A stretch of DNA of 64,000 bases from Flavobacterium sp. Lineage in GTDB: Bacteria; Bacteroidota; Bacteroidia; Flavobacteriales; Flavobacteriaceae. The stretch is from contig NZ_JAYWFT010000125.1 in assembly GCF_043778725.1 (NCBI RefSeq), positions 16,842 to 80,841 on the forward strand, read 5' to 3'. Below are positions 4,903-17,300 of the stretch, piece by piece (position 1 is the first letter of the stretch; the number at the start of each line of letters is the position of its first letter). A program made the position numbers and the translations under genes. The notes under the pieces were generated by a model. The model saw only the letters and a program-made list of their open reading frames with translations. It had not been told where the DNA came from and did no database searches.

Positions 4903-4964
4903 AACCATTAAGGTATTAAGAAAAATTAAGACATAGCTTAATGAACCTTAATACCTTAATGGTT
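4903..4964. repeat. Palindromic intergenic element (AACCATTAAGGTATTAAG family), full copy
   Basis: Perfect 18-bp inverted repeats at 4903-4920 and 4947-4964 around an inner TTAAG/CTTAA pair. Confidence 0.9.
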
Positions 4965-4979
4965 TTAAAAAATAAAATT

Positions 4980-6026
4980 TTGTCACAAAAAATTCAACAT
5001 ATCGCCATAATCCGACTCTCTGCGATGGGCGATGTTGCTATGACAGTTCCTGTTATTAGAGCTTTTGTTGAGCAAAATCCACAGATTAAAGTTACTATAG
5101 TTTCTCGTCCGTTTTTCAAACCATTTTTTGACGGAATTCCCAATCTTACTTTCTTTGAAATAGATTTAGAAAAACGTCACAAAGGTTTTCTAGGTTTGTT
5201 GCGATTGTATGCCGATTTGAAGCAATTAAATATTGATGCCATTGCCGATTTGCACAATGTTTTACGTTCTAAAGTTATAAGAACATTATTTGCCTTGAGC
5301 GGAAAAAAAGTAGCTTTTACAGACAAAGGAAGAAGTGAGAAAAAAGCATTGACGCGTGCCGAAAATAAAGTTTTCAAACCATTAAAATCCATGTTTGAAA
5401 GACATGTTGCTACGTTTACTAAACTTGGTTTTTCTGTTGATTTATCTTCACCAAATTTTCCTAAAAAAGCGATTTTATCGGATGTAGTTTTATCTGTTTC
5501 TGGTGAAAAGAAAAATCAAAAATGGATTGGAATTGCGCCATTCGCTCAATACGAATCGAAAGTGTATCCACAAGATTTAATGCAAAAAGTAATTCATGAA
5601 TTGGCATCGCATAACAACAATAAAATCTTTCTTTTTGGTGGCGGAAATAAGGAAATCGAAATCTTAAATCTGTTTTCTAAAAATAAAGAAAATGTAATTG
5701 TCGTTGCAGGAAAATTAAATCTAGAACAAGAATTACAATTAATTTCCAATCTTGACGTAATGCTTTCAATGGATTCTGGAAACGCTCATATTGCTGCGAT
5801 GTTGGGAATAAAAGTTGTTTCACTTTGGGGTTCAACACATCCGTTTGCAGGTTTTTCTCCGTTTAATCAACCTTTAGAAAATAGTTTGGTTTCGGATAGA
5901 GAGAAATATCCATTATTACCAACTTCGGTTTATGGGAATAAAAAAGTTGTAGGTTATGATGATGTTATGAGGAGTATTTCTGTGGAGAGTGTTTTGGAGA
6001 AGATTGATTTGGTTTTGAACCATTGA
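4980..6026 (+). CDS. Glycosyltransferase family 9 (LPS heptosyltransferase-like)
   Basis: IIRLSAMGDVAM, IADLHNVLRS, MLSMDSGNAHIAAMLG, LWGSTHP. Start set at TTG 4980 because the upstream ATGs lie inside the palindromic element. Confidence 0.88.
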   Translation: MSQKIQHIAIIRLSAMGDVAMTVPVIRAFVEQNPQIKVTIVSRPFFKPFFDGIPNLTFFEIDLEKRHKGFLGLLRLYADLKQLNIDAIADLHNVLRSKVIRTLFALSGKKVAFTDKGRSEKKALTRAENKVFKPLKSMFERHVATFTKLGFSVDLSSPNFPKKAILSDVVLSVSGEKKNQKWIGIAPFAQYESKVYPQDLMQKVIHELASHNNNKIFLFGGGNKEIEILNLFSKNKENVIVVAGKLNLEQELQLISNLDVMLSMDSGNAHIAAMLGIKVVSLWGSTHPFAGFSPFNQPLENSLVSDREKYPLLPTSVYGNKKVVGYDDVMRSISVESVLEKIDLVLNH

Positions 6027-6050
6027 GGTATTAAGTTTTACTGAATGGTT
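6018..6050. repeat. Collapsed copy of the AACCATTAAGG palindromic element, containing the GT9 stop codon
   Basis: AACCATTGAGGTATTAAG (17/18 match to the arm), then TTTTACT (the same loop as the 58073 copy), then GAATGGTT. Confidence 0.7.
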
Positions 6051-6130
6051 TACCGTGTCGCGAGATTGCGAAATGTGAAAGTGAACTTACTACAAAATTC
6101 GCAATTGCTAGAAAAGCTGTTGGGCGCAGT
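6043..6130 (-). mobile_element. attC-like site (partial) directly after the DUF6602-like gene
   Basis: On the minus strand the stop codon runs into ACTGCGCCCAAC, which contains RYYYAAC. There is an internal 8-bp inverted repeat ATTGCGAA/TTCGCAAT (6065-6072 / 6098-6105). The distal GTTRRRY box is missing. Confidence 0.5.
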
Positions 6131-6999
6131 TATTTTTTTATAATTTGATTTATCATATTTGCCCAAGGCATTCTTCCTAATCGAATATAATCAATAGCAT
6201 GAATTAAGTATGCTAAAAATAACCCATATGTTAGGTTTTCTGCTATATGAACTCCATAAAAATTTTCTTTATCAGGCAACGAAAATATTGTTTCGACTCC
6301 ATCACTCTTACTTTCATCATAATAATGACCTGTTGCTAAATAGTTAGATTTCCCCATTATAATCAGTTCTGGATTGAAAATTGATTTATCTATATCTTTT
6401 GAAAACAATAATTTATTTATTTCATTTTTGTCTGTTATTCTGTTTGTTGGGTTTTCAAAAGCTACATATCTACTAATAATTGCTGTAAATATTGGGTTTC
6501 TATGTTTTGGTAAATGGTCGCATTTTATATCATTTTTAAATTCAGGTAAATGAGGATCAATTTGAAAAATTCCAATTTTTGATCTTTGCTCACATAATTC
6601 TTTAATTTTTTTGACTTGTGAAACCGCATTATTAACACTCGATTTTGAAGTTAAATTACCCAAAATTATTGTATGTTTAGCTTCTATATATGCATAAACA
6701 GCTTCAATTGGTATTTGTTCTTTACGAGAAAAATTTTCTTTATCATTTATTCTTAAAGTTGGAAATCGTTCTTGGTCATAAATAATAATATCATCTCCAG
6801 CCATTTCGCCTGATTCAGATACTACAAAACCTCTACAAATTCCATATTTTAAAGGTAAAAACGAACGTAATATTTCACAAATTGCTAATTCAAATTCTAT
6901 TCCGTATTCGAAACCATAAGTTCCAGATATGTCATCTAATCTTCTATTGAATTTTTCTGATAAAGTTCTAATGTAATTATTATATAGAAGTTGTTCCAT
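6130..6999 (-). CDS. DUF6602-like protein, predicted PD-(D/E)xK nuclease fold
   Basis: FELAICEILRSFLP.KYGICRGFVV...GDDIIIYD...IPIEAVYAYIEAK. Start set at ATG 6999 (MEQLL) because the GTG at 7050 overlaps the upstream gene. Confidence 0.65.
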   Translation of the reverse strand: MEQLLYNNYIRTLSEKFNRRLDDISGTYGFEYGIEFELAICEILRSFLPLKYGICRGFVVSESGEMAGDDIIIYDQERFPTLRINDKENFSRKEQIPIEAVYAYIEAKHTIILGNLTSKSSVNNAVSQVKKIKELCEQRSKIGIFQIDPHLPEFKNDIKCDHLPKHRNPIFTAIISRYVAFENPTNRITDKNEINKLLFSKDIDKSIFNPELIIMGKSNYLATGHYYDESKSDGVETIFSLPDKENFYGVHIAENLTYGLFLAYLIHAIDYIRLGRMPWANMINQIIKK

Positions 7000-7027
7000 A
7001 TTTCGGTTTTTTATAATTGAGCCCAAA

Positions 7028-7336
7028 TCACAAATATATCTGATTATCACGACAAATCTCCAAAATATAACTCTTTAAATTAGAAATAGTTTCTTGATAA
7101 TTTGGTGCTTCATAGCCAAAACGCTCGTGTTCTAATTGTTCTTTTTCGATGGCCTTGCAACCTTTTATAACTTCCTTAATCATATCGAGTAGGATTAATT
7201 CTTTGTTTTTGTTTTTTTCAAATTTAAAATCCACCAACTCGTCTTCCAACTTTTCACAATAATCCAAAAGCTCTTGAACTTCTGGTTCGTCCAAAAGATC
7301 TTGAGCTTTTTTAAATATTTCGAGTTTGTTTCGCAT
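7028..7336 (-). CDS. Hypothetical acidic helical protein
   Basis: 102-aa ORF with ATG start, co-oriented in the accessory stack; no motif recognised. Confidence 0.6.
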   Translation of the reverse strand: MRNKLEIFKKAQDLLDEPEVQELLDYCEKLEDELVDFKFEKNKNKELILLDMIKEVIKGCKAIEKEQLEHERFGYEAPNYQETISNLKSYILEICRDNQIYL

Positions 7337-7385: not shown

Positions 7386-7778
7386 CTAAAGGATATGATC
7401 ATTTTTACCACTCCATGAAAATACTTCATATGTAACATTTGGTTCTTTTTCAATTTGTGAAACATTATTAATTAATGTAGTTTCAAACCAAATTTTATTT
7501 TTATTAGCAATAACCCAAAGAATGGAATCTTTAAAAATATTATTAAGTATGTATTTTAGTTCTTCAAAATTATCAATCGAATAGGCAGAATTTTCAAAAT
7601 GATTTTGTATCCATATAGAATTATCTTCCAGAGTAAGGACTACTAGATTGCCTATTTTTGCATTATTAAAATTTGTAATGTTCAATAGTAATAATTCGTC
7701 ATAACTTTCATTTTCAAAAATTAAATCAGGATAATTTAAGAGAAATTCAATGTAAATATTTTTTGAAAAACTATTCAT
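7386..7778 (-). CDS. Hypothetical protein
   Basis: 130 aa; its ATG abuts the stop of the upstream reductase (TAAATG); very AT-rich. Confidence 0.55.
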   Translation of the reverse strand: MNSFSKNIYIEFLLNYPDLIFENESYDELLLLNITNFNNAKIGNLVVLTLEDNSIWIQNHFENSAYSIDNFEELKYILNNIFKDSILWVIANKNKIWFETTLINNVSQIEKEPNVTYEVFSWSGKNDHIL

Positions 7779-8831
7779 TTAGACATCATCATAATCAACA
7801 ACAATTTCACTTGATGTTGGATGTGCTTGACAGGTCAAAATTAATCCGCTTGCGACTTCTTTATCGGTTAGTATGGAGTTCTTTTTCATTTCTGCACTTC
7901 CCGATTTTACTCTTGCTAAACAGCTGCTGCAAATTCCGCCTTGGCATGAATATGGTGCGTCAAGTCCTTGTTTTAATGCAGCTTCAAGTACAGTTTGCTT
8001 TTGCGACATTTCAAAAGTTGCTTCGTCACCATCAACTAAAACTGTGATTTTAGTATGACCATCATGAGATGCAGCAGCAGTATTTTCTACAGAAGAAGTA
8101 GAGAAAAGTTCGAATTTTATATTTTTTTCGGCAACATTATGCTCTTTTAAAACATCAGAAACTAAATTAATCATTTCTTCTGGACCGCATAAATAAAACT
8201 TAGAAAATTCTTTTTCTTTGTGTTTGTTGTTCAGTACAAAATTCACAATGGATTTGTCAATTCTGCCAAAAAGTTCGTTTTCAACTTTAGTTTGACTGTA
8301 GACAAAATGAGGAAAAAAGCGTCCTACATAGTGTTGTTGTAAATCGTGTAATTCTTGATGAAAGATAGTTTCTTCGGGTGTTTTGTTTCCGTAAATTAGA
8401 ACAAAAGTGCTGTCTTTTTCGTTTTTTAAAACCGATTTTAAAATCGACATTACTGGTGTAATTCCGCTTCCGGCAACAAATGCAGCATAATTTTTTAGTT
8501 TGTCAACTTGAGGTTCAAATGTAAATTTTCCTTCGGGTTGACCAACTTCTATAAGATCACCAACTTTTAAATTCTCGTTAGCAAATTTAGAGAAATTACC
8601 ATTTTTTACCGACTTAATAGCTATGCGCAATTCACCACTATCTGGCGAAGAACAAATAGAATAAGCACGACGAATTTCTTGTCCGTCAAGCGTAAGTTTT
8701 AAGTTAATATATTGACCTGCAATAAATTGATAAGCCGATTGTAATTCGGACGGAACATTAAAAACTACAGAAACCGCATTTGGAGTTTCGCGTTTTACTT
8801 CTTTGATTTGTAATTTATAAAAAGCTGACAT
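7779..8831 (-). CDS. Ferredoxin--NADP reductase family flavoprotein with C-terminal 2Fe-2S domain (PaaE-like)
   Basis: RRAYSICS (FAD), AGSGITP (NAD), YLCGPEEM, PYSCQGGICSSC and LTCQ (2Fe-2S). Confidence 0.9.
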   Translation of the reverse strand: MSAFYKLQIKEVKRETPNAVSVVFNVPSELQSAYQFIAGQYINLKLTLDGQEIRRAYSICSSPDSGELRIAIKSVKNGNFSKFANENLKVGDLIEVGQPEGKFTFEPQVDKLKNYAAFVAGSGITPVMSILKSVLKNEKDSTFVLIYGNKTPEETIFHQELHDLQQHYVGRFFPHFVYSQTKVENELFGRIDKSIVNFVLNNKHKEKEFSKFYLCGPEEMINLVSDVLKEHNVAEKNIKFELFSTSSVENTAAASHDGHTKITVLVDGDEATFEMSQKQTVLEAALKQGLDAPYSCQGGICSSCLARVKSGSAEMKKNSILTDKEVASGLILTCQAHPTSSEIVVDYDDV

Positions 8832-16799: not shown

Positions 16800-17300
16800 A
16801 TGGAAGAATTATTAGGTCAGTTTTCGGTTGGATTGTTCATCATGCAAACAGTTTTGTTTGTTGGATTAATCCTTTTATTAAAAAAATTCGCTTGGAAACC
16901 TATTCTTGACGCTGTAAACGAAAGAGAAGAAGGAATTAAAAATGCATTGCTTTCGGCTGAAAATGCTAAAAAAGAAATGCAAAATCTTAAATCAGATAAT
17001 GAAAAATTATTAGCTGATGCAAGAGCTGAGCGTGATGCTTTAATGAAAGATGCTCGTGAAATCAAAGATAAAATGATAAACGATGCTAAAGTTGAAGCCC
17101 AAGCAACAGGTGAAAAAATGATTGAACAAGCGAAAGCAGCAATCAATAGCGAGAAAAATGCAGCTATGGCAGAATTGAAAAATCAAGTTTCGTCATTGTC
17201 ATTAGAAATCGCAGAAAAAGTATTAAGAGACGAATTATCTAACAAAGATTCTCAAACTAAATTAGTTGAGAAAATGTTGGGTGACGCTAAATTAAACTAA
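16800..17300 (+). CDS. atpF: F0F1 ATP synthase subunit b
   Basis: N-terminal TM, KKFAWKPILDAVNEREEGI, long coiled coil. Confidence 0.95.
   Translation: MEELLGQFSVGLFIMQTVLFVGLILLLKKFAWKPILDAVNEREEGIKNALLSAENAKKEMQNLKSDNEKLLADARAERDALMKDAREIKDKMINDAKVEAQATGEKMIEQAKAAINSEKNAAMAELKNQVSSLSLEIAEKVLRDELSNKDSQTKLVEKMLGDAKLN

Follow-up and report, generated by a model that had tools for sequence, protein, structure and literature searches.

The gene for a 289-aa DUF6602 protein in Flavobacterium sp. is very probably a genuine cassette of an integron-like gene-capture system, stranded between two core genes and probably immobile. It lies on contig NZ_JAYWFT010000125.1 (C125; assembly GCF_043778725.1), in the stretch of 64,000 nucleotides (positions 16,842 to 80,841) that was analysed here and that we call the window. 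Positions given without a contig refer to the window, and features are on its minus strand unless stated otherwise. A first-pass annotation had proposed a captured, now immobilised cassette, pointing to the ends of the open reading frame (ORF), a 13-mer in front of it, the complementarity of this 13-mer to the 3' flank at 11 of 13 positions and a hairpin behind the gene. All of these are present as described. The parts of the cassette are:

6130..6999, minus: cassette ORF for the 289-aa DUF6602 protein, PD-(D/E)xK nuclease type (Pfam PF20247)
7021..7027, minus: cassette 5' end TTTGGGC, an R'-type core with T in place of the family G, fitting the family consensus G1T2T3R4...A11T12-15
7014..7026, minus: 13-mer TTGGGCTCAATTA, at 11/13 positions the reverse complement of the bases preceding the gene's own AAC
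6119..6125, minus: inverse core R'' GCCCAAC, start of the attC-like site
6052..6131, minus: decayed attC-like site (nhmmer and covariance model)
6065..6105, minus: hairpin ATTGCGAA...TTCGCAAT, the family's inner 6-bp stem (TTGCGA/TCGCAA)
6052..6062, minus: CGCGACAC GGT, possible retained 3' tip of the attC-like site and right junction, suggested by comparison with C182:4897-4773

Read along the minus strand, the TGA of an upstream 102-aa ORF (7030-7028) is followed by a single T (7027), by TTGGGCTCAATTA, by a 14-nt A-rich spacer and by the ATG of the DUF6602 gene (6999). At the other end the TAA (6132-6130) is followed by CTGC, by GCCCAAC (6125-6119) and by the two hairpin arms ATTGCGAA (6105-6098) and TTCGCAAT (6072-6065). 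The reverse complement of TAACTGCGCCCAA agrees with the 5' 13-mer at 11/13 positions. Taken alone this complementarity is not significant and lies within the range of chance, for 11/13 or better was found between the 40-nt flanks of 7.4% of 1500 sampled ORFs of at least 200 aa in the same genome. We nevertheless consider it real, because the 3' flank is homologous to a family of repeats, because this family follows a boundary rule, and because homology to an independent copy breaks exactly at the boundaries. Of the two mismatches of the 13-mer, one is an A at cassette position 11 that is itself invariant in 27/27 cassettes of the family.

The repeat family and the cassette boundaries

When positions 6027-6135 were compared by BLAST with the rest of the genome (193 contigs), four further copies were found that cover window positions 6066-6123. 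An nhmmer profile built from these four, with the window excluded, recovered the window copy (E 6.4e-9 genome-wide, model positions 2-61) together with dozens more; after iteration the profile matched 44 times, on 26 contigs, with E values of at most 1 that are for the most part far below 1e-3, and a covariance model identified 37 copies. Full copies, of which the genome contains at least 37, are ~125-145 nt long, begin with ...AAC a few bases past a stop codon and end with ...GRAAC GTT ahead of the next ORF; the 3' flank of the window gene corresponds to the first ~58 nt of this structured repeat. The existence of homologous copies associated with ORF ends was the point on which the first-pass annotation had staked its proposal, and full-length copies were indeed found directly after ORF ends, co-oriented with them and with matching 5' sequence. 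The copies form same-strand rows with a spacing of mostly 0.6-1 kb and some gaps of 2-4 kb, for instance on C160 (at 8054, 7207, 3060, 2184, 1247 and 247) and C120 (at 4009, 1614, 864 and 128), with further rows on C182, C42, C149 and C39. Many short contigs end within a copy, as is expected where an assembler meets an array.

The repeats are conserved in structure rather than in sequence, as attC sites are, with nearly invariant AAC/GTT ends. RNAalifold predicted two stems from 23 aligned full copies, with compensatory changes in 10/14 predicted pairs. The structure that was tested (AAC/GTT plus a 12-bp and a 6-bp stem, 21 modelled pairs) is paired in 92% of the cells of the alignment, and pairing falls to 34-45% when one arm is slid by 1-3 columns. 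Double (compensatory) changes occur in 13 of the 21 modelled pairs, and 0/500 shuffles do as well as this structure. A full site closed with its own cassette end also folds far better than shuffled sequences (z -3.8 and -3.9 on the two strands). The first-pass annotation had suggested looking for extrahelical bases in a folded full copy; the fold shows single-base bulges and a one-sided 1 x 5-nt loop beside the core (A on the 5' arm versus GRAAC on the 3' arm). A search of Rfam returned no family matching the repeat.

A further finding was that the 5' end of a cassette is complementary to its own inverse core. For cassettes bounded by two sites, the 10 nt past the upstream GTT were set against the reverse-complemented 10 nt that precede the AAC of the same cassette. 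A match of at least 8/10 was obtained for 10/15 cognate pairs and for 2% of the non-cognate combinations (mean 3.8/10), and three of the five cognate failures bracket weak intermediate sites that were missed in the first pass. Cognate matching of this sort marks units that form circles and recombine at the core. The score of the window gene is 8/10; it departs from a full match at the family-wide A11 and at G8, which is changed to T. The consensus of the 5' ends reads G1 T2 T3 R4 ... G8 ... A11 T12-15; A11 is present in all 27 cassettes and faces a C in most cognate pairs, which results in a conserved A/C mismatch, and the window 5' end retains A11 as well as T12-13/15. In 16/19 cassettes the largest ORF has the orientation of the site, and it terminates shortly ahead of it. 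A scan of nine cassette proteins gave matches to a SMODS nucleotidyltransferase, a Dcm methylase, a ParE toxin, a 1124-aa helicase-nuclease, a tail sorted by the type IX secretion system, TPR, DUF1963 and YcxB; no recognised immunity family was found among these nine.

Independent support for the boundaries came from a metagenome contig (L137) encoding a protein that is 85% identical to the window DUF6602 protein. At the DNA level the contig and the window share 83% identity over 908 nt, and the homology runs exactly from 7027 (TTTGGGC) to 6121 (GCCCA), the latter position lying inside the R'' core, and ends at both. On L137 a copy of another repeat, 81 nt long, stands on either side of the unit. 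An array of a different kind thus contains this ORF with these two core ends, which fixes the boundaries of the cassette.

The L137 junction reads ...GAC TTTGGGC, so that the T before TTGGGC is common to the window and L137, and a cassette on C51 begins ...GAC TTTGGGCG with a T at the same position. Of 27 site ends tabulated in the window's genome (a table that does not include the C51 site), 26 have a G at this position and none has a T. The T had been explained as a later replacement of the upstream G; its presence in L137 indicates that the base belongs to the cassette and speaks against a later substitution. From its occurrence in three different upstream contexts we infer that the T of TTTGGGC moves with the cassette; the crossover would then be situated one base 5' of the classical position, G|TT.

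Solo copies of the site were also observed elsewhere in the genome. Two are located on the 116-kb contig C68 (C68:62996-63136 and C68:92560-92637), each right behind a small ORF; one has TAC for AAC and the other ends after model position 76. On C51 (C51:14300-15199) a family site that lacks its 5' half and ends GAC TTTGGGCG is followed by a lipoprotein-like gene. A direct repeat of ~45 nt (AAAGAACTGTGCTTAAAAACAAATAAAATTAGATTTA...) lies on both sides of the whole unit, which resembles a further stranded cassette and may include a target duplication. Decayed solo cassettes thus seem to recur in this genome.

Recombinase, attI-like site and distribution

The earlier remark that no integrase is in view holds for the window, which has none, but not for the genome, as a recombinase is encoded on another contig. 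A gene for a 350-aa tyrosine recombinase heads an array on C182 (5739-6791, minus). It is followed on the same strand, after ~140 nt, by ...TGCGTATATTAATGA GTTAGCC, by a 199-aa ORF and by a site starting with GGCTAAC; the GTTAGCC at the attI-like junction is the exact complement of the GGCTAAC of this first cassette. The 199-aa protein of the first cassette (C182 4921-5520, minus) matches a homing-endonuclease profile of PADLOC (E 3.6e-10). In 11 recombinase loci, of Flavobacterium and of metagenome-assembled genomes of related Bacteroidota, the motif TGCGTRTATWTATGA|GTT is found 140-230 nt past the recombinase stop; directly behind GTT the similarity between the loci ends, like at an attI junction. 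Between the recombinase stop and the attI-like site most of these 11 loci contain a TAtaTTTG box (similar to the Bacteroidetes -7 box) and a small palindrome, ACGCwwTGCGTTTTTT (C182: 5560-5740), which may represent a promoter of the array and an element for regulation or termination.

The C182 enzyme is not a canonical IntI. It reaches 197.7 bits, in two pieces, on the IntI model TIGR02249 (cut-off 265) and 204 bits on a XerA-type model. In the alignment to VchIntIA (2a3v) the chain residues 201 to 249 are skipped while the query moves from 272 to 279, which means that the IntI-specific insertion is absent; it is on this absence that the enzyme is set apart from IntI. No candidate outscored it in a genome-wide search. 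Membership of the canonical integrons was rejected, as an integrase with an IntI domain above the cut-off was not found (197.7 versus 265 bits). Three classical features of integrons are present in this genome, namely a co-oriented array that starts at an attI-like site beside a recombinase (on C182), palindromic sites with AAC/GTT ends, and cassette 5' ends that complement their own inverse core. At the level of sequence, the genome can be said to hold a gene-capture system with an Xer/IntI-like recombinase, an attI-like site and co-oriented cassette arrays.

The system is widespread in the genus. The site model matches 130/151 genomes of Flavobacterium species, in many of them at the scoring cap, with arrays of more than 30 kb in complete genomes, and orthologues of the recombinase are present in 87/151 congeneric genomes; 11 of these congeners have, among the sites listed, one that closely follows the recombinase on its strand. 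The tyrosine recombinase that the first-pass annotation expected beside such arrays was therefore found both on C182 and in these 11 congeners. Its suggestion of an attC-like cassette-shuffling system in Flavobacterium is strongly supported by the number of genomes with sites, by the recombinase-headed arrays and by the conserved attI motif.

Across the phylum, site matches were found in 129/301 high-quality genomes, representing 72/143 genera. Among 18 genomes that were searched for recombinases, the same non-canonical enzyme was seen at the head of an array in six additional ones, of which three belong to other classes, and a canonical IntI is present in two (G183 and G229). G183, from another class, contains a canonical IntI (430 bits, above the cut-off) as well as the non-canonical recombinase with a family site 6.6 kb downstream, so both kinds of platform can coexist in one genome. 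Relatives of the recombinase occur in Saprospiraceae, Chitinophagales, Cytophagales, Sphingobacteriales, Bacteroidales, Empedobacter and Myroides, and Bacteroidales recombinases that are 51-62% identical to the C182 enzyme adjoin sites of the family. Of the public recombinase loci, 29/50 have site matches. These follow the recombinase on its own strand or, for five loci, are found upstream of it on the other strand. L066 (Flavobacterium enshiense DK69), which has six model matches downstream of the recombinase, also has one further match upstream on the same strand. The five loci with sites upstream on the opposite strand (L105 of Empedobacter stercoris, L104, L108, L118 and L125) have the classical divergent layout. 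In several genomes (G143, G069, G166, G161, G100, G116, G032, G132, G210, G335 and G387) the array-linked recombinase lies in an open frame of ~570-615 aa instead of ~350 aa, which suggests a variant with a large N-terminal fusion.

Insertion, decay and rival explanations

The window cassette lies in a variable islet between two core genes, with the following neighbours:

7028..7042, minus: insertion target, the last codons and TGA of the 102-aa ORF, with weak resemblance to the left half of attI
7028..7336, minus: 102-aa ORF upstream, an older resident and probable co-transcription partner, with syntenic homologues in two congeners
7386..7778, minus: 130-aa orphan ORF, part of the variable islet, without cassette marks
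4941..6026, plus: glycosyltransferase family 9 (GT9), flanking core gene (Pfam PF01075; present in 60/61 congeners)
7779..8831, minus: ferredoxin-NAD(P) reductase-like protein, flanking core gene (Pfam Fer2, NAD_binding_1, FAD_binding_6)

In many congeners the GT9 and reductase genes are convergent neighbours at a distance of only 23-100 nt, and across the genus the gap ranges from 23 nt to 6.5 kb. Homologues of the 102-aa ORF (77% and 72% identity) are found at the same position in two congeners that have no DUF6602 gene. When the DUF6602 protein was searched for in 60 relatives, only three distant matches came up (30-39% identity), none of them at this site, and in the closest sampled species (G023) the two core genes are separated by a different filling of 644 nt. 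The ATG of the 130-aa ORF abuts the reductase stop (TAAATG) and its G+C content is 0.23-0.25; it was not found in the relatives examined, and neither this ORF nor the 102-aa ORF matched a family in Pfam, NCBIfam or PADLOC. In a congener (L034, genome G065) a gene of ~1 kb, bounded by two copies of a different palindromic element of ~95 nt (AAACGCAAAGTCCGC...GCGGACTTTGCGTTT), is located between the 102-aa ORF homologue and GT9, and represents a second kind of bounded insert in the same intergenic hotspot.

The attC-like site of the window has decayed. It retains R'', the 5' (L'') arm and the two arms of the inner stem, but 46 internal model positions are absent and the L' (3') arm is unpaired; the copy covers model positions 2-61 only and hence is not full-length with both pairing arms. 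The remnant folds no better than shuffled sequences (z -0.6 and -1.1). With 46 positions and the 3' pairing arm missing, the cassette is probably immobile. The loss of the distal arm, which had been proposed before, was thus borne out, albeit not as a simple cut-off: the segment CGCGACAC GGT (6062-6052) resembles the 3' tip of a full site, GCCGCGACAC GTT, which suggests an internal deletion with a possibly retained tip. The right junction can be bracketed only to about 6036-6066, because the relatives share no more than ~9 nt past the GT9 stop. As to the target, TATATTTGTGA to the left of the junction agrees at 9/11 positions with the left half of the genome's attI, TATATTAATGA, and a position weight matrix from eleven attI sites ranks the target as reconstructed among the best 0.1% of positions in the genome. 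The idea of a captured and now immobilised cassette is supported by the lack of a DUF6602 gene at this site in relatives, by the exact homology breakpoints, by the missing distal arm and by the lack of a stable fold.

The route that we prefer starts from an empty site, predicted to read ...TATATTTGTGA|GGTAAACC..., at which a circular cassette would have been inserted by the recombinase; the stop codon of the 102-aa ORF would have served as a weak, attI-like secondary site. A later internal deletion may have taken the middle of the attC-like site and its 3' pairing arm, after which the site could no longer fold and the cassette would have become fixed. Transcription of the gene would then come from upstream: it may share a transcript with the 102-aa ORF, or be driven by a -7-box-like TATATTTG that arose or was kept at the junction.

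Several observations weigh against this reading. With its filters on, the covariance model misses the window copy, which it detects when they are off (6034-6131, 19.1 bits, E 0.0011 for 1.5 kb searched), the retained 3' tip is based on a resemblance over 8-11 nt, and the right junction is placed to a bracket of ~30 nt. The target scores 0.7 bits on the position weight matrix, versus 22-27 bits for 9/11 of the attI sites, and ~7,800 genome positions score as well. The C182 recombinase is without the insertion that classical IntI needs for binding of folded attC sites. A scan with the family-site model of seven metagenome contigs that carry close DUF6602 homologues, L137 included, found no site, and in a look-up of the exact protein in metagenomes every exact copy occurred in the same context, without polymorphism. 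The anti-phage role of the product discussed below is derived from similarity at the domain level.

An origin without any cassette, in which a fragment of a mobile repeat (of the type of repetitive extragenic palindromes or miniature inverted-repeat transposable elements) or of a terminator-like repeat landed behind an ordinary operon gene and the complementarity of the 5' and 3' ends arose by chance, is very improbable. It would accommodate the frequency at which an 11/13 match occurs (7.4% of genes), the poor fold of the remnant, and the fact that the L137 homology stops at the core, by which ORF and repeat interior appear separable. It does not account for both homology breakpoints lying exactly on the predicted cassette ends in a unit that is again repeat-bounded in L137, for the family-invariant A11 and the T12-13/15 kept in the window 5' end, or for a cognate boundary rule that holds across arrays which adjoin a dedicated recombinase and an attI-like site. 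A chance palindrome was rejected, as was an ordinary terminator, since the remnant folds no better than shuffled sequences and a T-run is lacking; integration of the tRNA or phage type was rejected because the neighbourhood contains neither an integrase nor an att duplication or phage gene.

Two other scenarios keep the cassette but alter its history, and we consider both unlikely. The locus could be the remnant of a small local array, similar to an attC site cluster without an integron-integrase (CALIN), where cassettes arrived via a resident attC that has since eroded and the DUF6602 unit is the last survivor; the variable gap between the core genes (23 nt to 6.5 kb), the L034 gene between two copies of another palindromic repeat at the same site, and the further truncated solo copies on C68 and C51 would be in line with this. 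However, only one base separates the stop of the 102-aa ORF from TTGGGC, without a trace of attC, the 102-aa ORF is syntenic in two species that have no family site, and the site model detects nothing else in 5800-7300. Alternatively, the whole islet of 1.75 kb (the 130-aa, 102-aa and DUF6602 ORFs) could have come from another Flavobacterium by homologous recombination, with insertion and decay having taken place in the donor. The three ORFs do share orientation and a low G+C content (0.23-0.29 versus ~0.32-0.36 in the flanks), and the different filling in the closest sampled species G023 would agree with such a transfer; yet the 102-aa ORF is syntenic in two other species, and the transfer would change only the place of the event, leaving the cassette nature of the DUF6602 unit unaffected.

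Relation to known systems and role of the product

The Flavobacterium system resembles the sedentary chromosomal integrons, like the Vibrio cholerae superintegron with its ~125-nt Vibrio cholerae repeat (VCR) sites, and the 'inverted' layout known from Treponema denticola. Shared are the co-oriented, mostly single-ORF cassettes, the imperfect palindromes of ~125-145 nt with AAC...GTT ends, a cassette 5' end that complements its own inverse core, a tyrosine recombinase and attI-like site at the head of the array, a cargo that includes toxin-antitoxin, restriction-modification and secreted proteins as well as proteins resembling cyclic-oligonucleotide-based anti-phage signalling systems (CBASS), and solo cassettes outside arrays. 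In contrast, the recombinase lacks the IntI insertion, scores 198 versus 265 bits and is longer at the N-terminus by ~78 residues; in most cases its gene points in the direction of the cassettes; and in the site, a 1 x 5-nt asymmetric loop and an A/C mismatch at position 11 replace the spacer and extrahelical bases of a classical attC.

For class 1 integrons it has been described that cassettes can be inserted at secondary (non-att) sites and are thereby fixed. The window cassette is similar to these as a lone cassette outside an integron, beside an unrelated gene, with a foreign promoter and without re-excision. It differs in that its immobility also stems from an internal deletion of the site, in that its target is weakly attI-like and in that the recombinase is not an IntI.

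The closest published precedent is formed by the loosely defined recombinase-associated acquired interbacterial defence (rAID-1) clusters of gut Bacteroidales (Ross et al. 2019; bioRxiv 10.1101/471110). In the part of that source considered here, rAID-1 is defined by recombinase identity and by a cargo of orphan immunity genes against type VI secretion system (T6SS) effectors, and close homologues of the recombinase are said to be restricted to Bacteroidales. The criteria given there are a 5' XerD-like recombinase at least 44% identical to BF9343_RS08045, and at least two co-directional downstream genes with repetitive intergenic sequences (bioRxiv 10.1101/471110); co-directional genes of this kind are also found in the C182 array. 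The phylum and the architecture are the same, and Bacteroidales recombinases occur with sites of the family described here. The same part of the source describes enriched motifs, without site structure, core, attI junction, boundary rule or solo cassettes (bioRxiv 10.1101/471110), and the cargo seen in Flavobacterium consists of defence, toxin-antitoxin and secreted proteins. Among the best 120 matches to a Bacteroidales homologue of the recombinase, no named Bacteroides protein was found that could tie it by name to the Bacteroides fragilis rAID-1 enzyme. What the sequence comparisons add to rAID-1 and integrons is a defined site structure, attI junction and boundary rule, together with an occurrence that extends beyond Bacteroidales.

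The first-pass statement that integrons are little described in this group agrees with the literature, apart from the partial precedent of rAID-1. With IntegronFinder 2.0 the Bacteroidetes were found to have lone integrases and only one complete integron, in Salinibacter ruber (PMC9024848), and Bacteroidota have been cited as an example of a clade without previously found integrons (bioRxiv 10.1101/2024.07.02.601686). Our search of the literature on attC or integrons in combination with the names of Flavobacterium or other Bacteroidota returned no description of this system. Surveys call the phylum nearly integron-free because their search targets are IntI with its extra domain and canonical attC sites.

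We lean, by a small degree, towards the broader view that Bacteroidota carry a widespread integron lineage of their own. Its Xer-like recombinase would never have had, or would have lost, the IntI insertion; recognition of the folded site and strand choice would be encoded differently, with the 5-nt one-sided loop and the A/C mismatch as candidates; the crossover would lie one base 5' of G|TT; cassettes would become fixed at weak attI-like sites in the core genome and seed defence genes there; and rAID-1 would be one branch. If this is true, the system, which occurs in the majority of Flavobacterium species and in every second genus sampled from the phylum, would amount to a large unseen reservoir of mobile genes for defence, toxin-antitoxin and surface proteins. 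The extra domain of IntI is held to be essential for binding of folded sites, and whether an Xer-like enzyme without it can recombine such sites is a question about the origin of the system that is open to experiment.

The product of the window gene matches Pfam DUF6602 (PF20247; E 5.9e-20, 71.6 bits versus a cut-off of 27) and the PADLOC profiles for Cas-associated PD_DExK (3.1e-20) and NucC (3.6e-13), and D69/D70 and E106-x-K108 are invariant in 18 homologues. The consensus of the Bacteroidetes -7 box is TAnnTTTG, and a box of this type, TATATTTG, is located at 7038-7031, inside the end of the 102-aa ORF (chance expectation 0.037 per 40 nt). The argument that there is no room for a promoter in front of the gene is therefore weak: with this box further upstream, the 28-nt gap does not exclude a promoter, and co-transcription with the upstream ORFs is a simpler alternative to a promoter of its own.

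The V. cholerae superintegron is reported to carry Damona, an anti-phage cassette with a single gene, whose product is a DUF6602 protein (bioRxiv 10.1101/2024.07.02.601686). Damona and the window protein have in common the DUF6602 domain, the matches to the Cas PD_DExK and CBASS small-endonuclease profiles and their carriage as an integron cassette; they come from different phyla and cassette systems and are likened at the domain level. By analogy with Damona, on which the expectation of an anti-phage role is founded, the window gene most likely encodes an intact PD-(D/E)xK nuclease that acts as a stand-alone anti-phage effector. The locus connects the escape of cassettes from arrays to their fixation beside core genes, by which the host gains a stand-alone nuclease gene that is probably directed against phages.

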